The notes under the pieces: generated by a model
Told to the model about the DNA's origin: nothing
Seen by the model: the letters and a program-made list of their open reading frames with translations, nothing else
The model's database searches: none
Shown: positions 1 through 10,306 of the stretch, in pieces
How the letters are laid out: every line of letters begins with the position of its first letter
How positions within the stretch are numbered: the first letter of the stretch is position 1
Made by a program: the position numbers and the translations under genes
Origin: a virus
Lineage: Monodnaviria; Loebvirae; Hofneiviricota; Faserviricetes; Tubulavirales; Inoviridae
Virus record (IMG/VR): IMGVR_UViG_2541047900_000001
DNA length: 10,306 bases
Direction: 5' to 3' (one strand)

Positions 1-14
1 ACATTATGCGCACC
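1..14 (-). other. Partial dif site (XerC arm plus first 3 bases of the central region), truncated by the window edge
   Basis: Bases 1-14 ACATTATGCGCACC are the exact reverse complement of GGTGCGCATAATGT, i.e. the XerC arm GGTGCGCATAA plus TGT of the central region of the E. coli-type 28-bp dif site. The rest of the site would lie left of the window. Confidence 0.75.
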
Positions 15-154
15 AATGGTAAGGATGGCAGAATCTGGCGGGAATCGTTGACACTGGCCGTCAACTGGCTACTATCGACAGTGATTCAAAATCATCCGTT
101 TCTCCAAACGAATCAGAATCAAATGTCTGTCAGCAGTAAGTGAACGGCCTGACC

Positions 155-403
155 TCACCAATCAGGCCTGTTCATCCAGTTAGTTGGTAAATCTGTACCT
201 GATACACGAGAATCAAACACCACTTCTTCAGTGCCATCACCATGATGCCGGATAATCTGGTAACCGGATTGCGGGTTCTGGCTCTCAGCTTCATAAGCAG
301 CCCGGAATGCTGGATCTTTGAGAAGCATCACTTTCAGCTCCTGATGTGTCATGAATTTTTCCATGATAAGCCCCGATGAATGCTGCCGCGCCGAATCAGC
401 CAT
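155..403 (-). CDS. Hypothetical small protein (82 aa) in the cargo position downstream of the secretin; start codon uncertain
   Basis: Intact ORF. No convincing Shine-Dalgarno at the annotated start, and internal Met codons (MEKFM..., MTHQELK...) are alternative starts. No family assigned. Confidence 0.4.
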   Translation of the reverse strand: MADSARQHSSGLIMEKFMTHQELKVMLLKDPAFRAAYEAESQNPQSGYQIIRHHGDGTEEVVFDSRVSGTDLPTNWMNRPDW

Positions 404-548
404 AACGCTGAAAATGGAAACTGTACGGCTTGGCCAACCCCGGACAGCAACAAAACAAGTTTTGTCACTGACCGGCGTTATCTTTCAAAACAGACAGTTA
501 ACGATTTTTTGTCTGGTGTTTATGCGTGAAATTTCGTGCGTACGAAAT

Positions 549-797
549 TCACCACCAATAAACAAACGGACGATGACTGACCGGAAAAGCAATGCCGTCA
601 GCATCATGACCACGCATTACCTGATTGAGAAGCCTTCTGACTTCACGACGCTCAGGCCTGGTCATCATCATATTGCGATACCAGGACGGCGATTTATCAA
701 ACCATCTGGCACAACTGGCAAAATGTGAACCTACACGACGATAAGACTTAAGGCGTCCACCGGGAAGTCGGTCACGCGCCTTATTTTTTACAGACAT
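549..797 (-). CDS. Hypothetical small basic protein (82 aa), cargo gene immediately downstream of the secretin
   Basis: ORF preceded on the minus strand by AGAGGA, 6 nt, ATG (strong Shine-Dalgarno). Arg/Lys-rich translation. No family recognised. Confidence 0.5.
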   Translation of the reverse strand: MSVKNKARDRLPGGRLKSYRRVGSHFASCARWFDKSPSWYRNMMMTRPERREVRRLLNQVMRGHDADGIAFPVSHRPFVYWW

Positions 798-885
798 AAT
801 AAATCCTCTAAGTAACTGAATACCTAGAAGATGTCGTACTGTTCATACCCCATAAAAGTTAACGCCATAATAAAAATCCATACAA

Positions 886-2130
886 TCAGTTCAGGTTGTC
901 CCGGAACAGTTCACCGCTCCTCGCGGCGCTGCGGGGCGTCGCCCTGCTCCGGTCAACCTTTCTGACCTGAAGCATCACCATAATATCAGTCTTGTTGCTT
1001 TCACTGGTACGGGAACCGAAGAAGCTCCAGCCGGAACTGGCCTTACTGTCTTTCTGTTCAGCAAGGCCACCAAGTAAAATAATATCACCATCTGCAAGGC
1101 TGACTTCGGTTGTTACATCACGCTTGATAAGGGTTGGCGAGTTATTGACGCCGGTTTCAGTGGTCACAAAGTTGGAAAGCTGCTGCTGAATCTTGAGATC
1201 CATTGTCCGACTTTTGATTGATGGCGTCACGTTAAACAAAACACCGCTGGAACGATATTCAACGGATTGCGTTGTCGTATTGTTATTCACCGTAACACTG
1301 CCCAGTACTGGCACATCAGAGCCGACTGAAAAAGACGCTGAGGCATTATTTTTTACCCGCAGTCGTGGCGCACTGACAACAGTAAAACGACTGTCGGTTT
1401 TCAGCAGATTGAAAATGGCATCAATGGAGCCGGTTCGAATATTGATAAAATTATCCAGTCCGGCAGCACCAACTGAAATATTGAATTTATCAGACAGAAT
1501 TTTAGCCGCTAAAAGAATGCCGGAGCCGTCAGACTGCGAGGTCTGAACCTCAAAAACATAACCAGAAACAACCACTTCATCACTCATCGTATCCAGCGAA
1601 GTGACCAGTGTTTTCAGGATGGCGATATCCTCTTTCGTACCATAATAAACCAGAATATCACCGGTTCGATTGATGTAGTTGCTTGCCCCTGATGAACCTT
1701 TTAGCGAATCGTCAGAAATCACGGCTCCACTGTTATTGAAGGAGCCTGAAACGTAGCCGCCAAGAATATCAGACAGGTAAGCAACAGAACGGTACTGAGG
1801 CGTATAAGTCCATGTATAACGTGGCTTAACCGGCTCTTTCGGCGTATAGGGCGCGATAAAATCAACACCCTTTTTCGTCCATATTCGAATGTTCATATTG
1901 CCAAGATAACGGGTTACAAATTCCCGTTCATCAATATCAGGTGTTAACCTGAATGTAATCATTCGTTCATCATTAACAAGCTGTGGATCTAGCATATACG
2001 GGACTTTAAGCACCTCACTGTAAATAAGAGAAATAGCCTCCGGTAGCTTGACTTTATTTAATTCAAGCTCTGACCCTGCGAAAGCACATGAAGAAAATAG
2101 TAGCGTTAATGCGAGTAAAATCTTTTTCAT
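886..2130 (-). CDS. Filamentous-phage pIV-type outer-membrane secretin
   Basis: 414 aa with N-terminal signal peptide MKKILLALTLLFSSCAFA. C-terminal half has the secretin-like pattern (VVSAPRL..., SVG..VP..., ILLGGL) resembling Ff gene IV protein. Its ATG overlaps the upstream gene's TAA by 1 nt (2130). Confidence 0.88.
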   Translation of the reverse strand: MKKILLALTLLFSSCAFAGSELELNKVKLPEAISLIYSEVLKVPYMLDPQLVNDERMITFRLTPDIDEREFVTRYLGNMNIRIWTKKGVDFIAPYTPKEPVKPRYTWTYTPQYRSVAYLSDILGGYVSGSFNNSGAVISDDSLKGSSGASNYINRTGDILVYYGTKEDIAILKTLVTSLDTMSDEVVVSGYVFEVQTSQSDGSGILLAAKILSDKFNISVGAAGLDNFINIRTGSIDAIFNLLKTDSRFTVVSAPRLRVKNNASASFSVGSDVPVLGSVTVNNNTTTQSVEYRSSGVLFNVTPSIKSRTMDLKIQQQLSNFVTTETGVNNSPTLIKRDVTTEVSLADGDIILLGGLAEQKDSKASSGWSFFGSRTSESNKTDIMVMLQVRKVDRSRATPRSAARSGELFRDNLN

Positions 2131-3155
2131 TATTTTTTCCCCGTATAAAGCGTCACACGCTCACCATCAATAATTCCGCTCATCAACATCCCTTTGTAAT
2201 TAAAACTGGATGCAGGAACGGCACGCAAAACACCGGCACCGTTAACAAGAATCACAAACGCCCTGCCTTCACTGGTCATTCTCCCTGATATACGCCACTC
2301 GGTTGAAAGTGGCGGTTCAGCTGGTTCTGAGGGAGTATCTGGTGCTGGAGTAGCAGCGGAAGAACGAAACATGGCCGCATCACGTACATCTGTTGTAGTC
2401 AAATCTGGCGAGGGATCGCTTCGGCCAAACGTGCTGAAAAATGAGTAAATCAGCCAGCCTGACCCGATAAACATCAATGGAAAAAGCACAAGAAAGAACC
2501 TGACTTTGCCAGAATTCCAGATGCTCTGGCGTTTATCTGTCTGCTTTTCATTACCGTTATTTCCTTCATAACTTTTGTAAAGTTCAAAAATATCAGGGTT
2601 ATATTTATTGCGATAACTGGTGACGAGGTTGCTTTTATAGATTTTGTGGCCTGAATATACGTCAATGCAATAATGATTATTCAGGCCCAACGCTTTCAGC
2701 TTGCGCATCCGGTAAGTTGTTTCTATTTTGTCTTTCAGAAAGCGAGCAATATTAGAAAGTGACTGATTTACAATAACCAAATCACAGCTAATACCCGTTT
2801 CAGGGTGCGTAAAATGACGATGTTCAGCAATAAATGATTTCTTCTCAGCCGTCATATCCTTATCGCTACCGAAGATTCGCCATGCTTCATCAATAACAAT
2901 TAAATCACCAAACTGGCAAAAGCTCCCTTCCCCACCTTTAAAAGGAAAGAAATCTGCTTTAAGCACATCATCATTATCCACAACAATAATTTCTCCCGTT
3001 GCATCAGGATAACGTTCGGTGATTTTATCTTTTTGTAAACCATAAATGTTCGTCACAACTCTCCGGCCGCTGGTAAATGCCGGAATAATGACATTGTAAA
3101 CGGCTTCATAACTTTTTCCTGAGCCGGGTATGCCAATATATGCAGAAATAGCCAT
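2130..3155 (-). CDS. pI / Zot-family phage assembly ATPase
   Basis: 341 aa; Walker A P-loop GIPGSGKS at residues 8-15; central hydrophobic helix (FFLVLFPLMFIGSGWLIYSFF); Pro/Ser/Thr-rich C-terminal region. Position directly upstream of the secretin as in Ff, CTX-phi (zot). Confidence 0.88.
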   Translation of the reverse strand: MAISAYIGIPGSGKSYEAVYNVIIPAFTSGRRVVTNIYGLQKDKITERYPDATGEIIVVDNDDVLKADFFPFKGGEGSFCQFGDLIVIDEAWRIFGSDKDMTAEKKSFIAEHRHFTHPETGISCDLVIVNQSLSNIARFLKDKIETTYRMRKLKALGLNNHYCIDVYSGHKIYKSNLVTSYRNKYNPDIFELYKSYEGNNGNEKQTDKRQSIWNSGKVRFFLVLFPLMFIGSGWLIYSFFSTFGRSDPSPDLTTTDVRDAAMFRSSAATPAPDTPSEPAEPPLSTEWRISGRMTSEGRAFVILVNGAGVLRAVPASSFNYKGMLMSGIIDGERVTLYTGKK

Positions 3156-3158
3156 AAC

Positions 3159-3446
3159 TCACCCTATAACAGGAATACGTCGAATAATAAAACGAGTAGC
3201 CATTGCGGAGATAATCATACTAATCCCCTGTGGTAATTTACTCAGGTTAATGAAGTACCAGAATCCGTCTGATAAATTGGCAAACAGCGATGAGAGATTG
3301 CTTGAATCTGGCAGTAACTCAACAAGGATTTCAACGAAGCCCTGGACTACAAAATACAGCGCAAAGAATACGACGAATTTAATAATCAATGACCGGAATA
3401 CAAAACCTAACAAAGTATTTAATGCACTAATCAGAATCCCAAACAT
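3159..3446 (-). CDS. pVI-like minor coat / membrane protein
   Basis: 95 aa, strongly hydrophobic; AAGGAG Shine-Dalgarno 7 nt upstream of ATG; lies between the pIII-like and pI genes as gene VI does in Ff phages. Confidence 0.6.
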   Translation of the reverse strand: MFGILISALNTLLGFVFRSLIIKFVVFFALYFVVQGFVEILVELLPDSSNLSSLFANLSDGFWYFINLSKLPQGISMIISAMATRFIIRRIPVIG

Positions 3447-3458
3447 AGTTGCACTCCT

Positions 3459-5171
3459 TTAGGCACTCAGAATAATACGGAGCGCAACAAATCCCCATAT
3501 AATCAGAAATATGGTTTCTACGGCGCTTCTGTTCTGCTCAATTAACGGACAATGGGAGTCAATTCTGTACTGGTGATTAAACACGCTGAATTCAACAACG
3601 GGGCAGGATGCTGAACGAGAGCCGATGTTAAATTCGTTTGTAAAAGGCAACAAGTTAATAATTGGCGTTAAAATATCTCTTGCCGTTGGCGTTTCTTCAA
3701 GCTCAGGCTCTTTTACACCGGGATCTTCTCCCAAATCTATATTGCCATTATTTCCAGTGTCAGATCCTGAGTTGTTATTAATGGTAATATCAATATTGAC
3801 GTCAGCCCCTGCACTGTCAGATACAGGTGAAAGCATATCTAATAACGTTGGAGATAGCCTAAGTTCCGACATCGCAGAAGTTACTTCAGCCGGTGAAACC
3901 TCTTTAAACGGTAAGCCGTTATAATCGGCATTAACGGCAGCTTCAGACCACAGCTCGTTAATCATGTCGGCAAGAAGTGCTGGCGATACACTAACACTAT
4001 CAAGATACTCCAGATAATCAATCATGGACTCAATATTTCCGGCCTCCAGTACTTCCGTCATGGCTTTATATTTGGTATTGGTCCAGATAGTAAGCTCACT
4101 CTTTTCATCAATATCTTTTGCGGTGTAATCCTCTTTTTCAGGAACGGCGCAAATCGTCGAATATCCACCATTTGACTGATTAGTCGTTTTACAAGGCGTG
4201 TTGTGATACTGATATTGCTTTCCTGCTGTTAAATAAGCAACGCTGTAATACATGGGAAGCCCTGCTACATTTTCATACATGGGAATACCTGCGGGAAATG
4301 AAGATGCGGCCGGGTTGCTATACAAGTGTGTAATCTCAGGTATTTCATAAAATGAGGAAGGATAAGTAAACTTATAATTCTGTTCAGTAAAGGATACATC
4401 TCCATTACTGTTGACAACTTTATTCGTCACAGTGCGTTCAAAATTCGTTAGTGTTTCAGTATAAGTACGCGAGTTATAGTCATTAAGATAATTTCTGGCA
4501 ATTTCAGTTGGATTATCACCATAGTAATAAATTAGCTCTTTCGAATCCTGATAATAATAAAGTGCATTATCTGGCGTGGAATATCCTGTTTCAACACCTA
4601 CAACTGGAGAACCCGCATCCACATTATTACGACTAACATGAAGGATTACCGGACTTAATTCCTGTGGTTCAAAATTAACGGTTATCGTCTTACTTTCACC
4701 ACTTTGACCACTGTACGTTACTTCATATAAATTATCGGAAATCTTTTTACCGTTAGTCATTACCATTACCGAGCCGTCAGATGAACTCAAAGAAGACGGA
4801 ACAAAAGATGATACAGCAGCAGCAATACCCGCCCACGTTGCAACACCGCTCATTTTGTATGATGAGGCAGCAGGCAAGTATTCGGCAGCATTAGCCGCAG
4901 CGCGGCCAACAAAAACACGGGTTGCTGTAAGCTGTGATGCCGTATAAATCGCATCATTGGCAGCAAAGCGACGAACAAGCACCCGGCCAACGACTTTAGG
5001 AATAACAGCCCGCGCAGCCACTGCTGCAATTGCTGGTACAAATGAATATGAATATCGGGGAAAGGAAACCCAGAGAAAGGAAAAAATAAAGGAATAAACC
5101 GTCAGCCTCTTAGCCCAAGAATAACGACATAAGCTGAGACGATCCCCCATAAAAGGGAACCCAATTTCCAT
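3459..5171 (-). CDS. pIII-like adsorption (receptor-binding) minor coat protein
   Basis: 570 aa; GGAG Shine-Dalgarno 7 nt upstream of the ATG at 5171; Gly/Ser/Asn-rich linker (NNNSGSDTGNNGN); C-terminal hydrophobic anchor (TIFLIIWGFVALRIIL); position after the major coat gene. The exact N-terminus is uncertain. Confidence 0.65.
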   Translation of the reverse strand: MEIGFPFMGDRLSLCRYSWAKRLTVYSFIFSFLWVSFPRYSYSFVPAIAAVAARAVIPKVVGRVLVRRFAANDAIYTASQLTATRVFVGRAAANAAEYLPAASSYKMSGVATWAGIAAAVSSFVPSSLSSSDGSVMVMTNGKKISDNLYEVTYSGQSGESKTITVNFEPQELSPVILHVSRNNVDAGSPVVGVETGYSTPDNALYYYQDSKELIYYYGDNPTEIARNYLNDYNSRTYTETLTNFERTVTNKVVNSNGDVSFTEQNYKFTYPSSFYEIPEITHLYSNPAASSFPAGIPMYENVAGLPMYYSVAYLTAGKQYQYHNTPCKTTNQSNGGYSTICAVPEKEDYTAKDIDEKSELTIWTNTKYKAMTEVLEAGNIESMIDYLEYLDSVSVSPALLADMINELWSEAAVNADYNGLPFKEVSPAEVTSAMSELRLSPTLLDMLSPVSDSAGADVNIDITINNNSGSDTGNNGNIDLGEDPGVKEPELEETPTARDILTPIINLLPFTNEFNIGSRSASCPVVEFSVFNHQYRIDSHCPLIEQNRSAVETIFLIIWGFVALRIILSA

Positions 5172-5195
5172 AATTCAATCTCCATAATAACCTCA

Positions 5196-5222
5196 AGTAA
5201 AACGGGCGATATTGCATCGCCC
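5196..5222 (-). terminator. Putative rho-independent terminator between the major coat and pIII-like genes
   Basis: Inverted repeat GGGCGAT (5204-5210) / ATCGCCC (5216-5222) with 5-nt loop, followed on the minus strand by GTTTTAC. Ff phages carry a terminator at the same place after gene VIII. Confidence 0.5.
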
Positions 5223-5235
5223 ATGAATAATGAAT

Positions 5236-5469
5236 TTATGCGGATTTAACGGTACGCAATACCCAGCGAACGCCAGCGACACCGGCATAAAGTGTTACCA
5301 GTGAAGCAGCAACGGCCATAATCGCAACCAGAACTGTACTGAAATCAATGCTGTTCGTCAGCGGCGATAAATCAACACCACTTGATGCCGCTCCTTCTGC
5401 AGCGAAAGTCGCGCCAGAAACAGCCATTAATGCAGGTACAGCCAGAAAATTAACGTTTTTTTTAAACAT
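5236..5469 (-). CDS. pVIII-type major coat protein precursor
   Basis: 77 aa; signal peptide MFKKNVNFLAVPALMAVSGATFA then a ~54-aa mature peptide with acidic N-terminus, hydrophobic core and basic C-terminus (RWVLRTVKSA). GGAGA Shine-Dalgarno 7 nt upstream. Confidence 0.85.
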   Translation of the reverse strand: MFKKNVNFLAVPALMAVSGATFAAEGAASSGVDLSPLTNSIDFSTVLVAIMAVAASLVTLYAGVAGVRWVLRTVKSA

Positions 5470-5503
5470 AACTCTATCTCCATTACATTTTAAAGGTTCG
5501 CAT

Positions 5504-5755
5504 TCAAGCAGTACGAACCATCTTTATTACCTGTCCCACACCTACAGAAAAAAGCCAGAGCAGCAGGACAGAGCCAAAACCTAATGTCCAGTAATTTCCC
5601 ATTGCAGAATAATCAATTTGATGAAATGGTTCAGAACGTACCATTATTGCCTGACATTCTTTTGCATTGTTCGCATTACATAAATAACCTTCAATACGGT
5701 AACCATTTTCAGGAATATGATTATCAAACTGAATATCGAAACCTGATGTATCCAT
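5504..5755 (-). CDS. Small protein with C-terminal transmembrane helix; possible minor coat/assembly protein (pVII/pIX analogue)
   Basis: 83 aa; C-terminal hydrophobic segment LGFGSVLLLWLFSVGVGQVI; start 2 nt after the upstream gene's stop (TGATTATG), suggesting translational coupling; sits between the ssDNA-binding and major coat genes. Confidence 0.45.
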   Translation of the reverse strand: MDTSGFDIQFDNHIPENGYRIEGYLCNANNAKECQAIMVRSEPFHQIDYSAMGNYWTLGFGSVLLLWLFSVGVGQVIKMVRTA

Positions 5756-5757
5756 AA

Positions 5758-6075
5758 TCAGCCTTTTATTTCAGTAATGCCGCCATCTGATGAAATGTTA
5801 TAAGTTACTCCTTCCCTCCCCTCCATTGACCAGACGCGAACATATACAGGTATCTGGACTAACTTACCGATAAAATTATTTGCCTGATTCATTACACCGG
5901 CATTAACAAGAGCCTGAGATACACGAATAATAATCTGGTCTTGCTTAGTGCCGCCAAAACCATCAGGAATCTCTAAGCCAACACCAATTTCATTATAGTA
6001 TCCCTGACCATTGACCTTATTACGCTGGCGAGCACCAAGCATTTTACCTTTTACAAAAAGACCATAATTAGACAT
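5758..6075 (-). CDS. Probable ssDNA-binding protein (gene V analogue)
   Basis: 105 aa; AAGGAG Shine-Dalgarno; immediately downstream of the replication gene, where gene V lies in inoviruses. Assigned mainly by synteny and size. Confidence 0.55.
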   Translation of the reverse strand: MSNYGLFVKGKMLGARQRNKVNGQGYYNEIGVGLEIPDGFGGTKQDQIIIRVSQALVNAGVMNQANNFIGKLVQIPVYVRVWSMEGREGVTYNISSDGGITEIKG

Positions 6076-6086
6076 ATCACTCTCCT

Positions 6087-7139
6087 TTAATGCCAGTTAC
6101 TGGCATGTGAAATACGGTTATAATCGAAAATTAAACCTTTCTCATAAACCCATGATGGAATTTTGGCTGGTTTGGCTTCAAGAGTACGAACCAACGGAAC
6201 AACGTTATTAGAATCCGGTGACTCACAATAAAAGTTAATATCTATTCCGAAAGAAAGTAATTCTTTACGGTGTCGGTAGAATGTAGGTTTCGGTAACATC
6301 TCTTTCATGTTCGCGCCCTGCTTCCACAATAAATATGTAGACTGTATTTTTCTTGGGAGATTAATTATTTTTTCATCAGTTAATATAGTATTTTGATTCA
6401 TTTCTATTCTCCCTACATAGTCAGAGAATAATTTATTGGGCGTCTCAATATTCCAGCTATTACCAAGCGTAAGATTCAAATCAATTAATTCAGTTGTTCT
6501 TAATGTTAATTCAATGCGTAATTTATCTTTTGACCAGTCCAGTAAACCAGCTTTAACGAATTCGTCTGCCATCTGGTGCCCTTTTTTGCCAGATGTATGC
6601 TCATCATATTTTGAATAAAATTTCAGGCTCCAACGACGGGAGTTTTTCCCTAAGTAAACAGTGCCACCTTTACCACAGGCGCGACCGTGGCGAGTTTTAG
6701 CTTTAAATTCTGCGGCATATAACCATGCGCGGACATTTTCTAATGTTGACAATGAATACATGTAATTGATATCGATGCGCGAGATCTTAAATTGCCCTTC
6801 CATGACCTGCCGATAGGATGGTAGATCATGAGGAATATGCAGTAATGCCAATATTCTGGCGTAAGCTGTTAACACCAACCCTTGCAAATCGTCGGAACCG
6901 ATAACAGAGTGACCTTGCAAAAACTTTGATGGATTACCGTCAATGTAGAGATGTGTTGCCCGACCTTCACCATCAGATCCAACAGACCTTACTTTCATTG
7001 TGGACTCATGCGAACCGCGAACGGTCAACCGTTTTACTGTTTCCCACTCCACTGCACCGTCAGCATCGACGCTGACGACACTACCAGCCGGTAACGGTCG
7101 GTGTGTGCAAGGCAGGATTCCGGTAAACCAGTCGATCAT
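6087..7139 (-). CDS. Rolling-circle replication initiation protein (gene II / RstA-like)
   Basis: 350 aa; first gene of the minus-strand module, divergent from the HTH repressor as rstA is from rstR in CTX-phi. Size and position typical of inovirus replication initiators. Confidence 0.8.
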   Translation of the reverse strand: MIDWFTGILPCTHRPLPAGSVVSVDADGAVEWETVKRLTVRGSHESTMKVRSVGSDGEGRATHLYIDGNPSKFLQGHSVIGSDDLQGLVLTAYARILALLHIPHDLPSYRQVMEGQFKISRIDINYMYSLSTLENVRAWLYAAEFKAKTRHGRACGKGGTVYLGKNSRRWSLKFYSKYDEHTSGKKGHQMADEFVKAGLLDWSKDKLRIELTLRTTELIDLNLTLGNSWNIETPNKLFSDYVGRIEMNQNTILTDEKIINLPRKIQSTYLLWKQGANMKEMLPKPTFYRHRKELLSFGIDINFYCESPDSNNVVPLVRTLEAKPAKIPSWVYEKGLIFDYNRISHASNWH

Positions 7140-7277
7140 AAGTAGTCACACCCATCAAAATATGTGTCAATAGTCATTTGTGAGCAGATTGAATGGTCAC
7201 AATGTAATATGCTCAGATCTGACAGTCAATACATTTGCAATGTTTAAATTGTCAAAAATGAGCATCAAATCTAACTA
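7140..7277. promoter_or_regulatory. Divergent control region between replication gene and repressor (copy 1); probable promoters, operators and possibly the origin
   Basis: 138-bp AT-rich spacer between divergent genes. Contains a perfect 10-bp palindrome TCAGATCTGA (7213..7222), an inverted repeat TGTGA...TCACA (7180..7200) and three TGTCAA-like motifs (7165-7171, 7224-7230, 7250-7256). Exact -35/-10 elements could not be assigned. Confidence 0.55.
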
Positions 7278-7712
7278 TTGATGAAGTTATGGCGGACAAA
7301 CAGAGAGCAGAACGGTATCAAAAAGGTAATTCTGGAACACTCGACTTATGAAGAACTGGCCGAGAAGACTGGCATTAGCGTGAGTACGCTGGTCAGGATA
7401 GCGTCCGGCAAAACTGAACCTAAATTCAGTGACATCATTCAGATAGCTAAAATTACGGGTGCAGACTTAAACACCTTAGCTTATGGCTATGCTCTTGATG
7501 TTAAAGAAGAAGCTACCGAGCGGAAGCTAATCACTTCTGCGGATGGATATACTGATGAAGAAACCACTAACGCACATAATTTCATCGTGTGGAACATCAG
7601 GACACTGGAAAAACAAGATATTCTGGCACTCGCAAGGCAGGTTTCTGCCTTAAGTTCATACACTTACAGTACTAAAATGTTTATGAAAAAAGCGGTGTCT
7701 GGAGAAGAGTAA
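7278..7712 (+). CDS. HTH (XRE/Cro-C1-type) repressor, copy 1 with altered 5' end; possibly non-functional
   Basis: 144 aa, identical to copy 2 from IKKVILEH onward. Lacks the 46-bp segment carrying copy 2's Shine-Dalgarno and start, begins at TTG/ATG without a recognisable ribosome-binding site, and an extra G changes the first ~12 residues. Confidence 0.45.
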   Translation: MMKLWRTNREQNGIKKVILEHSTYEELAEKTGISVSTLVRIASGKTEPKFSDIIQIAKITGADLNTLAYGYALDVKEEATERKLITSADGYTDEETTNAHNFIVWNIRTLEKQDILALARQVSALSSYTYSTKMFMKKAVSGEE

Positions 7713-7726
7713 AAGGATTAACAGTC

Positions 7727-7879
7727 TCAGGAATGAGACAAACGTGCAGTATTACCGCGAACGGTCAACCGTTTTACTGTTTCCCACTCCACTGCACCGT
7801 CAGCATCGACGCTGACGACACTACCAGCCGGTAACGGTCGGTGTGTGCAAGGCAGGATTCCGGTAAACCAGTCGATCAT
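7727..7879 (-). pseudogene. Truncated duplicate of the replication gene 5' end (42 native codons plus 8 out-of-frame codons)
   Basis: 7754..7879 matches 7014..7139 (rep codons 1-42); reading continues into the reverse complement of the repressor copy 1 3' region and stops after 8 codons. Confidence 0.8.
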
Positions 7880-8050
7880 AAGTAGTCACACCCATCAAAA
7901 TATGTGTCAATAGTCATTTGTGAGCAGATTGAATGGTCACAATGTAATATGCTCAGATCTGACAGTCAATACATTTGCAATGTTTAAATTGTCAAAAATG
8001 AGCATCAAATCTAACTATTGAAAAACCACTGTTAAGATGGAGCCAAGTAG
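7880..8050. promoter_or_regulatory. Divergent control region, copy 2, with extra 46-bp segment providing the repressor ribosome-binding site and start
   Basis: Same motifs as copy 1 (palindrome TCAGATCTGA at 7953..7962), plus 8021..8066 containing GGAG about 9 nt upstream of the ATG at 8051. Confidence 0.55.
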
Positions 8051-8497
8051 ATGGGCAACAATGAGCATGAAGTTATGGCGGACAAACAGAGAGCAGAACG
8101 TATCAAAAAGGTAATTCTGGAACACTCGACTTATGAAGAACTGGCCGAGAAGACTGGCATTAGCGTGAGTACGCTGGTCAGGATAGCGTCCGGCAAAACT
8201 GAACCTAAATTCAGTGACATCATTCAGATAGCTAAAATTACGGGTGCAGACTTAAACACCTTAGCTTATGGCTATGCTCTTGATGTTAAAGAAGAAGCTA
8301 CCGAGCGGAAGCTAATCACTTCTGCGGATGGATATACTGATGAAGAAACCACTAACGCACATAATTTCATCGTGTGGAACATCAGGACACTGGAAAAACA
8401 AGATATTCTGGCACTCGCAAGGCAGGTTTCTGCCTTAAGTTCATACACTTACAGTACTAAAATGTTTATGAAAAAAGCGGTGTCTGGAGAAGAGTAA
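8051..8497 (+). CDS. HTH (XRE/Cro-C1-type) transcriptional repressor, intact copy
   Basis: 148 aa; helix-turn-helix segment STYEELAEKTGISVSTLVRIASGKTEPKFSDIIQIAKITGADL matches the XRE pattern; GGAG Shine-Dalgarno; divergent from the replication gene as rstR is in CTX-phi. Confidence 0.85.
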   Translation: MGNNEHEVMADKQRAERIKKVILEHSTYEELAEKTGISVSTLVRIASGKTEPKFSDIIQIAKITGADLNTLAYGYALDVKEEATERKLITSADGYTDEETTNAHNFIVWNIRTLEKQDILALARQVSALSSYTYSTKMFMKKAVSGEE

Positions 8498-8525
8498 AAG
8501 GATTAACAGTCTCAGGAATGAGACA

Positions 8526-8554
8526 AACGTGCAGTATTACCAACACTGCACGTT
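8526..8554 (+). terminator. Putative rho-independent terminator of the repressor gene
   Basis: Perfect 10-bp inverted repeat AACGTGCAGT (8526-8535) / ACTGCACGTT (8545-8554), 9-nt loop, then CTTTATTGTG. Only the left half is present after copy 1 (7741-7750). Confidence 0.6.
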
Positions 8555-8593
8555 CTTTATTGTGCGAATTTTGAACAATGAAAAAGGATCAAA

Positions 8594-9016
8594 ATGATGA
8601 GTAGAAATAACGAAACAAGCGGCGTTGAATTGGTTGTCGTGGGCGTATTTGCTTTCTGTCTGGCAGTTGTTGCCTGGTTAATGAAAACTTTCGATGTTGA
8701 ATGGCAAACAGCACTGGAAACTGCGCCTGGCCTGATAGTCTGGTTGCTTGTTGTCGGTGCGGGGATCTTTTTCGGGATCAAAATGGAAACAGGTCTTGTT
8801 CGCTGGGGTGCCCCACTGGCGATCGCCCTTCTGATTCCGGTATTCAAACCAATTCTTAAGGAAGCTGCCGGAGTACGTGAAATGGGTGGGTTGGTTTTCG
8901 ATGATATGGTTTCGTGGTACGGAACTGGCTGGGGAATGTCTCTGATGTTTTTTGGAATTCTTATCGTCGGATACGGTCTGCTTTATTGGTGGCACCGAAG
9001 AAATTCATATTATTGA
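8594..9016 (+). CDS. Small integral membrane protein (about 4 predicted transmembrane helices), function unknown
   Basis: 140 aa; AGGA Shine-Dalgarno 5 nt upstream of the ATG; four hydrophobic segments (VVVGVFAFCLAVVAWLM, LIVWLLVVGAGIFFGI, APLAIALLIPVF, MSLMFFGILIVGYGLLYWW). Antisense ORFs 8557..8847 and 8678..8995 judged to be shadows. Confidence 0.7.
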   Translation: MMSRNNETSGVELVVVGVFAFCLAVVAWLMKTFDVEWQTALETAPGLIVWLLVVGAGIFFGIKMETGLVRWGAPLAIALLIPVFKPILKEAAGVREMGGLVFDDMVSWYGTGWGMSLMFFGILIVGYGLLYWWHRRNSYY

Positions 9017-9018
9017 TA

Positions 9019-9049
9019 TAATATTACCCTAGGTTAACTAGGGTAATAT
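9019..9049. promoter_or_regulatory. Near-perfect 31-bp palindrome (13-bp arms, 5-nt spacer): terminator or protein-binding site
   Basis: AATATTACCCTAG (9019-9031), GTTAA, CTAGGGTAATATT (9037-9049); lies 3 nt after the stop of the membrane-protein gene, at the transition into AT-rich DNA. Confidence 0.55.
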
Positions 9050-9117
9050 TCAAATACTAAATTTTTACATTTTATCTGACCATCTTTGATCAGTTAAAAC
9101 ACTGGATTTTAAGTAAA

Positions 9118-10221
9118 ATGAGAAAAAAGATGCCGGACTTGATTACTGATACATTGAAAGTAGTTACTTCTTTTTTTGTGGCATTAGTCCTCAATAAGTT
9201 TTTATCTATATTTAGGAAAAGACAACTTTACTTATCCTGTTGGAACTCCTTGAGTAAAACCTCAATATCTGACAATGCAATAGTAATAAATGCATCAGTA
9301 TTTAATAAAGGTAAGGATAAAGAAAAAAATGTAGAAATAAAAGTCCCAAACGGTATGTCTTGTACTGTAATTGCAAGTGATCATGATGCAACTACCGAAG
9401 GTTCTTTTGTGAAGATAGATAGAATATTAGCAAATAAAAAAATATCCATGGTGCTCTTGATTGAAGGAACAAGAGTTCTTGATAAAAGTACCATGCCTTC
9501 CATAAGATCAGAAGATACTGACGGGAAAACATACCTTTCAAAAGACTCAGTGCCACCGAGTGCAGGTTCTTTTATTTTAGGCGGTGCTATTTTTGCTGCA
9601 TTTTTCAGTTATATGGTCATCAGTATCCAAACAGAAGACAACCCTCTCGCGGGCCCATTGAAAGCATATAACTACATGATTTATAACAATATGTACAATT
9701 CTGGACTTTCGATTAATCCTATAGGTAATGGACTGATAACTGAAAATTACAATCTAAGAGCGAATGAATACCCTATTGAAATAATAGATGCCAAGATAGA
9801 AAAAAATCAAATAATGTTCAAATTTAGAATAATTAATAAAACATCAGAAGCACTGAAAGTTTCAGGCGGATGGAGAATATATAAAAACTTTCAATATATT
9901 TCCGAACATGTTGATACATTTGATTATAAAGATGAAAAGAAAAGAGAAGAAGAAGAAATAAGGGTGTATAAGAAATACAATGTGGAATTTGTTAATGATA
10001 ATGGATATCTTATGGAAAAACCGAAAGAAAGGGTTGAAGTTCCTGCAAATTCAGTTGGCTATATTATAATAAACAGAAAATACTCTCCAAGCATTACTTA
10101 TAATGACCTAAACATCGAGTTTAACTTTAGTGGTGGTTCAGGTGAAATATACCAAGAAGCAGATATGCTTTTTACAGCTAAGAATTCTAATATAAGCAGT
10201 ACTATATTAGACAAGAAATAA
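9118..10221 (+). CDS. AT-rich hypothetical membrane protein with two predicted transmembrane helices and large Lys/Asn/Ile/Tyr-rich domains; function unknown
   Basis: 367 aa uninterrupted ORF in visibly AT-rich DNA, unlike the rest of the window. Hydrophobic helices near the N-terminus (VVTSFFVALVLNKFLSIF) and mid-protein (FILGGAIFAAFFSYMVISI). Weak Shine-Dalgarno; a second in-frame ATG 4 codons downstream is an alternative start. Confidence 0.7.
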   Translation: MRKKMPDLITDTLKVVTSFFVALVLNKFLSIFRKRQLYLSCWNSLSKTSISDNAIVINASVFNKGKDKEKNVEIKVPNGMSCTVIASDHDATTEGSFVKIDRILANKKISMVLLIEGTRVLDKSTMPSIRSEDTDGKTYLSKDSVPPSAGSFILGGAIFAAFFSYMVISIQTEDNPLAGPLKAYNYMIYNNMYNSGLSINPIGNGLITENYNLRANEYPIEIIDAKIEKNQIMFKFRIINKTSEALKVSGGWRIYKNFQYISEHVDTFDYKDEKKREEEEIRVYKKYNVEFVNDNGYLMEKPKERVEVPANSVGYIIINRKYSPSITYNDLNIEFNFSGGSGEIYQEADMLFTAKNSNISSTILDKK

Positions 10222-10227
10222 TTAATT

Positions 10228-10254
10228 GGTTCGCACAATGACGTTATGCTAAAG
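10228..10254 (+). other. Degenerate dif-like sequence (candidate Xer recombination site) with a 5-bp central region
   Basis: GGTTCGCACAA TGACG TTATGCTAAAG versus dif GGTGCGCATAA TGTATA TTATGTTAAAT: 9/11 matches in each arm, central region one base short. Orientation is inverted relative to the dif fragment at 1-14. Confidence 0.4.
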
Positions 10255-10290
10255 AGGCCGCTGCGGAGGCCATTTTCGCAGCGGCCTTTT
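10255..10290 (+). terminator. Putative rho-independent terminator downstream of the AT-rich gene
   Basis: GC-rich inverted repeat AGGCCGCTGCG (10255-10265) / CGCAGCGGCCT (10277-10287) followed by TTT; flanked by a further inverted pair CGTTATG / CATAACG. Confidence 0.55.
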
Positions 10291-10306
10291 CAACATAACG
10301 AGTCGC

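Follow-up and report, generated by a model that had tools for sequence, protein, structure and literature searches.

The window analyzed here, IMG/VR record IMGVR_UViG_2541047900_000001 (10,306 nucleotides), is a filamentous prophage at the dif site of Escherichia coli, adjoining hipBA. In blastn comparisons with two Ypfφ prophage loci of Yersinia pestis NCTC5923 (L011 and L019; L numbers denote the loci fetched for this analysis), positions 1-8577 showed 98.3-99.6% identity and positions 10215-10305 a 93% match that includes the phage attachment site (attP) in the same architecture, leaving 8578-10214 as the sole part without a counterpart in the Y. pestis prophage. With replication, structural and assembly genes near-identical to those of Ypfφ, the element is assignable to the Ypfφ/CUS-1 group of inoviruses and is apparently without an integrase gene, no recombinase having been found among the 13 annotated coding sequences of its circular form or the Pfam matches of the tested open reading frames (ORFs). 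Our subject is a pair of inverted dif-like sites at its right end, here termed A and B and separated by a GC-rich stem-loop, which we propose to be a folded, single-stranded attP of the kind known from the cholera phage CTXφ.

The element forms a tandem array beside hipA/hipB in E. coli TW10590 (L001) and is present as a single copy in E. coli ESBLEC_MG32. In strain TUM14759, the same phage genome was deposited as a 9,565-bp circular "plasmid" (L002), which we take to be the phage's replicative form; the window is longer, at 10,306 bp, because it carries an internal duplication of ~740 nt. The phage backbone was recovered from 121 of 5,426 complete E. coli genomes, and a megablast of the whole window against a 50,697-record phage collection gave no match. 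The phage is deposited once as an "untypable plasmid" (NZ_CP128883.1). The genes and features of the window are collected in Table 1.

Table 1. Genes and features of the window, with coordinates where they apply
Feature	Positions	Strand	Sequence or remarks
Second part of site B	1-14	-	ACA + TTATGCGCACC: perfect XerC arm and TGT of the central region
pII-family replication protein (rep)		-	Phage_CRI + G2P_X_C, E = 1e-73
Small DNA-binding protein; coat proteins		-	
570-aa ORF at the attachment-protein (pIII) position		-	without family match
DUF2523 protein; Zot; GspD-type secretin		-	
Helix-turn-helix repressor and two ORFs without assigned role		+	
Ori-like stem-loop	8527-8556		ACGTGCAGT-attaccaac-ACTGCACGT; rearrangement junctions directly after GTATTAC
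Variable cargo region between ori-like hairpin and attP	8578-10214	+	not in Ypfφ
140-aa ORF	8594-9016	+	phrog_4174, unknown-function family
367-aa ORF	9118-10221	+	phrog_17621, unknown-function family
Site A, candidate attP2-like half-site	10228-10254	+	GGTTCGCACAA TGACG TTATGCTAAAG; from sequence, chance scan and pairing with B
XerC-like arm of A	10228-10238	+	GGTTCGCACAA; 9/11 to GGTGCGCATAA
Spacer of A	10239-10243	+	TGACG, 5 nt
XerD-like arm of A	10244-10254	+	TTATGCTAAAG; 9/11 to TTATGTTAAAT
CGTTATG	10242-10248		
GC stem, tip of the proposed attP hairpin	10255-10287		AGGCCGCTGCG (10255-10265) with CGCAGCGGCCT (10277-10287); 11 bp, loop of 11 nt (gaggccatttt)
CATAACG	10294-10300		
First part of site B	10288-10306	-	XerD-like arm (TTATGTTGAAA on -) and 8 of the 11 nt of the central region

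Site A runs from its XerC-like to its XerD-like arm on the plus strand, and positions 1-14 (ACATTATGCGCACC) are the reverse complement of GGTGCGCATAATGT; being read on opposite strands, site A and this half-dif are inverted. An earlier reading of the window made from its letters (hereafter the sequence-only reading) had reported the two arm matches and the short center of site A, an inversion relative to 1-14 that precludes a simple attL/attR pair, and a GC-rich stem-loop flanked by CGTTATG and CATAACG, and all of these observations hold. The window boundary itself cuts inside site B: 10288-10306 followed by 1-14 gives TTTCAACATAA-CGAGTCGCACA-TTATGCGCACC, which runs unbroken in the circular copy (L002 310-342) and likewise at the right junction in the chromosome, where it ends at L001 13321. 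Read on the minus strand, site B is GGTGCGCATAA-TGTGCGACTCG-TTATGTTGAAA; its XerC arm is perfect, its central region has 11 nt and begins with TGT, and its XerD arm matches at 9/11 positions. In the prophage, 1-14 are part of the dif regenerated at the left junction; in the circular phage, an identical stretch of 14 nt supplies the rest of site B, so that the order in the circular form is GGTTCGCACAA TGACG TTATGCTAAAG / AGGCCGCTGCG gaggccatttt CGCAGCGGCCT / TTTCAACATAA CGAGTCGCACA TTATGCGCACC. The earlier suggestion that site A is the remnant of a phage attP is thus half sustained: an attP it appears to be, but rather than a remnant it would be the intact half of a two-part folded site whose partner is split by the window boundary.

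We scanned both strands for two-arm dif-like sites with at most two mismatches per arm and a spacer of 5-12. The linear window yielded site A only, and joining its ends added one partner on the minus strand, namely site B; A and B are the only two dif-like sites of the circularized window, inverted and 33 nt apart. As only 0.006 such sites are expected per window (1000 Markov-1 random windows), the resemblance of site A to dif is not due to chance. The GC stem holds A and B in register as the tip of the hairpin and may also terminate the cargo gene.

The chromosomal junctions provide a full set of attachment sites. The left junction, ATTTAACATAA TATACA TTATGCGCACC/AATGGTAAGG, is a perfect dif followed by phage DNA, and the right junction, TTTCAACATAA CGAGTCGCACA TTATGCGCACC/AACATAAACC, leads from site B into the host hipA flank; the matching attB, flank-ATTTAACATAA TATACA TTATGCGCACC-AACATAAACC, occurs uninterrupted in E. 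coli genomes (143/143 nt, 98.6%). Hence, the crossover is confined to the 14 nt ACATTATGCGCACC common to attP and dif, which include the XerC cleavage position, and no nucleotides were gained or lost on integration. One end of the prophage carries a regenerated dif and the other the inverted A-hairpin-B pair, as in CTXφ-type integration. Because the prophage is split within B, and because XerC cuts between the XerC arm and the central region that follows it 5' to 3', the exchanged strand is the minus strand of the window, which is also the sense strand for rep and zot and for the genes of the coat proteins and the secretin. By analogy with the biology of Ff and CTXφ, we infer that the minus strand is the packaged (+) strand, as its sense-strand assignment would lead one to expect.

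On the minus strand, the A-B region is predicted to fold into a hairpin of ~96 nt at -30.9 kcal/mol, compared with -13.3 ± 2.4 kcal/mol for shuffled sequences (z = -7.4; 0/200 as stable). In this fold, pairing between the XerC arms includes one mismatch and one wobble and that between the XerD arms two wobbles and one mismatch, while in the central region, where 11 nt lie over 5 nt, TG pairs with CA, a bulge of ~7 nt faces a single unpaired T, and CG then pairs with CG. In silico, therefore, the two sites anneal around an asymmetric, partly unpaired center of the CTXφ type.

Relatives retrieved by an exact 22-nt pattern inside site A comprised 14 genome loci and 34 viral contigs, in which we found 32 distinct complete sites and aligned 22; the genomes include those of Yersinia, Photorhabdus, Kluyvera, Lelliottia, Phytobacter, Serratia, Cedecea, Scandinavium, Enterobacter and Buttiauxella. 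Overall, the related-genome search that the sequence-only reading had recommended found site A kept across hundreds of genomes and 54 fetched loci. Leaving out the columns forced by the search pattern, variation falls on 15 of 19 columns predicted to be unpaired against 9 of 53 that are paired or in an arm (Fisher p = 2e-6, 22 sites). All 22 variants keep the TGT beside the XerC arm and the CG beside the XerD arm unchanged, and the intervening bulge comes in 12 versions; given the dif central region TGTATA, homology to it is limited to the side of XerC cleavage, again as in CTXφ-type sites. The changes seen in the XerC-like arm of site A (GAACC to GCATC, GCATT or GCACC; TTG to TTA) all keep or improve its pairing with B. 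In the GC stem, 10 of the 11 pairs never vary and one shows a wobble change, with a variable loop of 11-12 nt, and in every variant the central region of site B measures 10-11 nt and the A-B distance 33-34 nt. At a permissive E-value, all Rfam matches to the region fell far below the gathering scores, indicating no known RNA family.

The closest parallel to this arrangement is the attP(+) of CTXφ, whose inverted attP1 and attP2 anneal in the (+) single-stranded DNA (ssDNA) as a forked hairpin (Val et al. 2005, via PMC3089051 and PMC3442271). In the El Tor phage, attP1 (AGTGCGTATTA TGTGGCGCGGCA TTATGTTGAGG) has a 12-nt central region starting with TGT and attP2 (AATGCGTATTA TACGCCA TTATGTTACGG) one of 7 nt (PMC3089051, Table II). 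Site B, with 11 nt and TGT, would be the equivalent of attP1, and site A, with 5 nt, that of attP2; the center of A, which had been called degenerate, instead matches this asymmetry of short against long (PMC3089051). Both systems share two inverted dif-like sites on one strand with imperfectly paired arms, an apparent lack of a phage integrase, a regenerated dif at one prophage end with the inverted attP2-attP1 pair at the other, and tandem prophage arrays. They differ in that A and B are joined by a 33-nt connector with a simple 11-bp GC stem-loop (a hairpin of ~96-100 nt in all), as opposed to ~90 nt and a 150-nt forked hairpin in CTXφ, in that the arms match dif of E. coli and Yersinia rather than dif1 of Vibrio cholerae, and in host and phage backbone. 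CUS-1φ and Ypfφ have been listed in the CTXφ class (PMC4246890), described as enterobacterial integrative mobile elements that exploit Xer (IMEXs) and are related to CTXφ (PMC3442271), and termed CTXφ-type (PMC3089051). Thus, the hairpin attachment feature is real and was already known for this phage group. Ypfφ and CUS-1φ (of E. coli O18:K1:H7) resemble the present element in dif integration and tandem copies, and their prophages carry variable ORFs at the same prophage end (PMC4266046); in distinction from Ypfφ, the window has an unrelated cargo and its internal 740-bp duplication. The sequence of CUS-1 was absent from the phage collection searched.

Drawing together the anatomy, the predicted fold, the junction sequences, the conservation pattern and the tandem arrays, we put at about 0.87 the probability that this Ypfφ/CUS-1-group prophage has a CTXφ-type attachment site folded from a single strand, with site A as its attP2-like half. 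The mechanism that we envisage takes over from CTXφ the binding of XerCD, catalysis by XerC only, ssDNA as the substrate and resolution through replication. In the packaged (+) strand, site B (5'-GGTGCGCATAA TGTGCGACTCG TTATGTTGAAA) would anneal with site A (5'-CTTTAGCATAA CGTCA TTGTGCGAACC), 33 nt away, generating a duplex XerC arm and a duplex XerD arm in which A supplies the bottom strand and the center has 11 nt on top and 5 nt below. Host XerC and XerD would bind this folded dif mimic; XerC would cleave the top strand after GGTGCGCATAA and swap it with the top strand of the chromosomal dif, the shared TGT stabilizing the exchange, and the resulting pseudo-Holliday junction would be resolved by replication. 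The predicted product is a functional, regenerated dif on the side of window positions 1-14 and an inverted pair of A and B around the GC hairpin from 10228 to the end. As a duplex, this pair should be inactive because of its spacers of 5 and 11 bp, so that Xer could not excise the prophage and new phage DNA would consequently have to come from rolling-circle replication across tandem copies. The tandem array in TW10590 is consistent with such CTXφ-like irreversible integration.

Several points weigh against this interpretation and have to be set beside it. The published statements that CUS-1 and Ypfφ are CTXφ-type are themselves sequence-based. The plus strand of the window folds at -29.0 kcal/mol against -30.9 for the minus strand, and as both fold about equally well, folding energy cannot pick the strand. 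The invariance of site A in the alignment is by construction, the relatives having been retrieved by an exact 22-nt match inside it. Covariation lends no support among the 22 sites, where 29 of 40 pairs never vary and shuffle controls were not exceeded; with stems almost invariant, this test is uninformative. Finally, the junction sequences would look identical if site B recombined as a duplex. They fit equally well a XerC-side crossover in duplex B, with its perfect XerC arm, in which case B alone would be the attP, recombining with dif as double-stranded DNA in the manner of VGJφ, and A a bystander. The central regions of duplex Xer sites measure 6 bp in dif, 6 bp in psi and 8 bp in cer; that of B, at 10-11 bp in all variants, lies outside this range and is far from the near-canonical center of a single duplex site. 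Moreover, A stays at its fixed distance from B, inverted, complementary to it and conserved across genera, and variation avoids the pairing positions, all of which make a role for duplex B alone highly unlikely. VGJφ-type and TLCφ-type IMEXs exploit XerCD and dif and encode no integrase, as we suppose for the present element, but integrate reversibly through a single duplex site, a 29-bp one in VGJφ (PMC4246890), rather than through two inverted sites with spacers of 5 and 11 nt, and TLCφ lacks a proper XerD arm and uses a XerD-first exchange.

Two further explanations had been raised by the sequence-only reading. One casts site A as the boundary of a small Xer-mobilized cassette carrying the AT-rich gene, like the pdif modules of Acinetobacter, which also place dif-like sites beside accessory genes. 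The gene directly upstream of A is indeed highly variable, L026, L038 and L054 are without the insert that bears the 367-aa gene, and on plasmids site A follows differing genes. Yet pdif modules hold their cargo between two duplex XerC/D sites with 6-bp spacers, whereas here both sites lie on one side of the cargo, as one folded site; the two-arm scan of the window detected no further Xer-like site on the upstream side of the cargo, and a 5-nt spacer is incompatible with duplex Xer recombination. The plasmid copies sit within transporter insertion sequences (ISs) of the IS1202 family with their own inverted repeats and 5-bp flanking repeat, and since these ends account for the movement, mobility of the plasmid module needs no Xer. 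In many relatives, conserved DNA bounds the cargo slot on both sides, which fits homologous exchange. The pdif analogy can thus be set aside, and we give the Xer cassette a slimmer chance still than duplex B. The other explanation takes the structure for an ordinary rho-independent terminator that serves the cargo gene and whose likeness to dif is fortuitous; it could point to the 11-bp GC stem followed by TTTT, 34 nt past the stop codon of the 367-aa ORF, and to cargo ORFs that always end 1-20 nt before site A, so that a weak, secondary terminator role of the stem is possible. As a full account it is barely credible: so few two-arm matches are expected by chance, conservation extends to the arms beyond the GC stem, which pair with a perfect XerC arm, and the prophage boundary passes through the structure. 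A consensus terminator scan of L002 1-700 called none, the loop being 11 nt and only four T following rather than the short loop and U-rich tail of a typical terminator. Rather than an ordinary terminator, the hairpin is best viewed as the attachment site itself.

If A and B form a CTXφ-type folded attP, the right boundary of the prophage runs through a folded site, which matters for genome annotation: a 5-bp spacer in inverted orientation would be diagnostic of single-strand integration and not of decay, and recognition of the A-B pair would allow the boundaries of CUS-1/Ypfφ-like prophages to be called to the base. It further predicts that Xer recombination cannot excise single-copy lysogens.

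The cargo slot next to attP is highly variable among these phages. Neither cargo ORF of the window had a match in Pfam, PADLOC or NCBIfam. In L026 and L038, a homolog of the 140-aa ORF ends 10 nt before site A, and L054 matches the window up to 9018 and resumes at 10226; as the upstream ORF runs straight into site A in these three loci, ~9017-10222, which holds the 367-aa gene, is an insert. The earlier idea of a separate module around the AT-rich gene is hence borne out as regards its acquisition, with nothing to indicate that Xer moved it. As to whether 9019-10254 occurs independently of the prophage, the full stretch 9000-10306 is present in 17 complete E. coli genomes and the circular form, against 121 genomes with the phage backbone, and a 364-aa homolog of the 367-aa ORF stands before site A in the unrelated phage backbone of L043. 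Across 55 loci, the ORFs ending 1-20 nt before site A fall into ~20 unrelated clusters, and the slot proteins include AbiJ_NTD4/DUF7014 (PDC-S32), Shedu SduA, SIR2-like (PDC-S25) and CAP12/Pycsar-type TIR (PDC-S35) proteins. Defense-rich hypervariable regions are known in CTX-type inoviruses of Vibrio (PMC12715192), and the diversity of the slot extends this pattern to Enterobacterales.

Two small elements accompany the slot. Positions 9021-9050, on the left edge of the 367-aa insert and immediately past the stop codon that ends the 140-aa ORF, form a near-perfect 30-nt palindrome (ATATTACCCTAGGTTAACTAGGGTAATAT) with two central bases unpaired, which among the fetched loci is confined to this lineage. 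At 0.4-1.5 kb upstream of site A, 18 phage loci and four IS loci (for example, L004 1946-2008, L043 7219-7268, L012, L017 and L018) share an element of ~50 nt (GGAAACCGAGGTAAAATTCGGGTGTCACAGAACCCCGAACCGCTTCGCGGTG) that includes a small hairpin and is absent from the lineage of the window; it makes up a second conserved boundary of the cargo slot and is perhaps an origin or packaging element of the phage.

The ~90 nt at the end of the window also match 616 of the 5,426 E. coli genomes, with 460 of 811 places being on plasmids, and 492 plasmid records, 431 of them conjugative. Copies of this kind keep site A, the GC hairpin and TTTCAACATA and then switch to TGGACATTTCTAACGAGCC...GAGCTTTGACA, the right-hand terminus of an IS1202-family element. 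In L006, TAAAT follows a dif-like site (GGTTAACATAA TCCACG TTATGCGCACT); after it come the left end TGTAGAGGCTCAAT, a 479-aa transposase ORF (465 aa annotated), three ORFs for passengers, site A, the hairpin and the right end, whereupon TAAAT recurs (3,014 bp). In L018, AAGGT stands between a true dif and an identical left end, and the element ends in ...TTTGACA AAAGT (2,437 bp). The ends read 5'-TGT...ACA-3', with inverted repeats matching at 18-19 of 26 positions and a 5-bp flanking repeat that is exact in L006 and 4/5 in L018. Such truncated modules lie at L004 3002-3121, L006 3006-3125 and L018 (oriented) 4352-4471, and also in L009, L012, L017 and L056; they occur both on chromosomes and on ~490 plasmid records. 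Transporter ISs of the tISKpn21 type are known to choose a position beside dif-like sites, on the XerC side and at a distance of 5 bp, and to carry unrelated passengers (PMC10132070; bioRxiv 10.1101/2022.12.17.520857). The IS-borne copies of site A resemble these tISKpn21/tISKpn65-type elements (ISAba32/ISAjo2 subgroup) in ends, repeats, dif-proximal insertion and passengers; unlike them, the copy in the window is a complete phage site and not an IS-borne, truncated one. A Klebsiella pneumoniae plasmid locus has the module and the right IS end, but its gene arrangement differs from that of canonical ISKpn21 (2,278 bp).

Nucleotide homology of the IS-borne copies to those of phages always ends at +70/71, counted from the first base of site A, which is the last base of the XerD-like arm and the presumed XerD cut position. 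Three cargo families occur in both element types, linking L004 with L020, L017 with L024, L025, L028 and L042, and L006 with L032 and L039. We tentatively suggest, at somewhat adverse odds, that site A, the hairpin and the XerD arm form a 3' cargo-slot boundary shared by two unrelated kinds of dif-exploiting elements, the CTXφ-type inoviruses of Enterobacterales and tISKpn21-like ISs on chromosomes and on hundreds of plasmids, most of them conjugative, and that the IS passenger is a captured phage piece running from the ori side to attP. In the ISs, the module is truncated exactly where XerD would cleave and is joined there to the right end's inner transposase-binding repeat. As both element types pile up side by side at dif, defense genes could pass between them through homologous recombination at the two conserved flanks or through rolling-circle read-through. 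Were this so, the attP-proximal slot would be a shared market for single-gene anti-phage systems (AbiJ-like, Shedu, SIR2 and TIR) and a new route for defense genes between phages and conjugative plasmids. The shared module may be new: neither the two IS1202 papers nor the literature our searches reached reports it, the word "hairpin" being found in neither of the two texts and "filamentous" and "phage" being absent from the portions searched.

Some routes to this arrangement were considered and discarded. The XerD-like arm is not part of a symmetric IS end, and three schemes for capture of the module each fail to reproduce the arrangement: an IS inserting 5 bp from a XerC arm, integration into the IS in the CTX manner, and a single homologous exchange.

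In many prophage loci, left ends of IS1202-family elements (TGTAGTAGCTAAAT... and TATAGAGGCTCAAT...) lie 5 bp beyond the XerC arm of site B (L003 ~6110, L010, L015, L022, L024, L030, L033, L045, L047 and L052), which means that dif-hunting ISs also target the hybrid site made by the phage and accumulate beside the prophage. Within the fetched loci, we found no convincing right ends of plain IS1202-family copies beside phage-type prophages. In L023 (6032-6160), a cargo like that of phages L030 and L035 is followed by site A and the hairpin, with an IS right end replacing the center and XerC arm of B, and then by the hipA flank. This locus looks like a recombinant of a prophage and an adjacent transporter IS, as homologous exchange between their hairpins would yield, and it should be unable to integrate by the CTX route.

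Two other loci call for comment. L049, a single viral contig, holds two attP-like modules ~5 kb apart (7743-7825 and 12686-12772), which suggests two dif-integrated elements in tandem, a phage with either a satellite or a second phage. In L013 (JARKOR010000214.1), from a metagenome-assembled genome labeled "Candidatus Nanosynbacter", an Enterobacterales-type prophage attP is joined to an E. coli-like dif/hipA flank, and the contig is almost certainly mis-binned.

The ori-like stem-loop is the probable nick site of the pII-family replication protein and coincides with the rearrangements seen in this phage. The direct duplication of ~740 nt (7016-7755 and 7756-8541) comprises the 5' end of rep, the intergenic region and the repressor gene, its first copy having a deletion of ~47 nt and a 1-nt indel in the repressor ORF, and its junction (7755/7756) lies directly after the GTATTAC of the hairpin. 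In TW10590, the upstream copy of the tandem array is without the cargo, attP and the first ~465 nt of the phage, and its junction (L001 ~4200-4215, at ~4211), gtgcagtattac/tgaccggcg, again falls directly 3' of GTATTAC, which suggests aberrant initiation or termination of rolling-circle replication at the origin.

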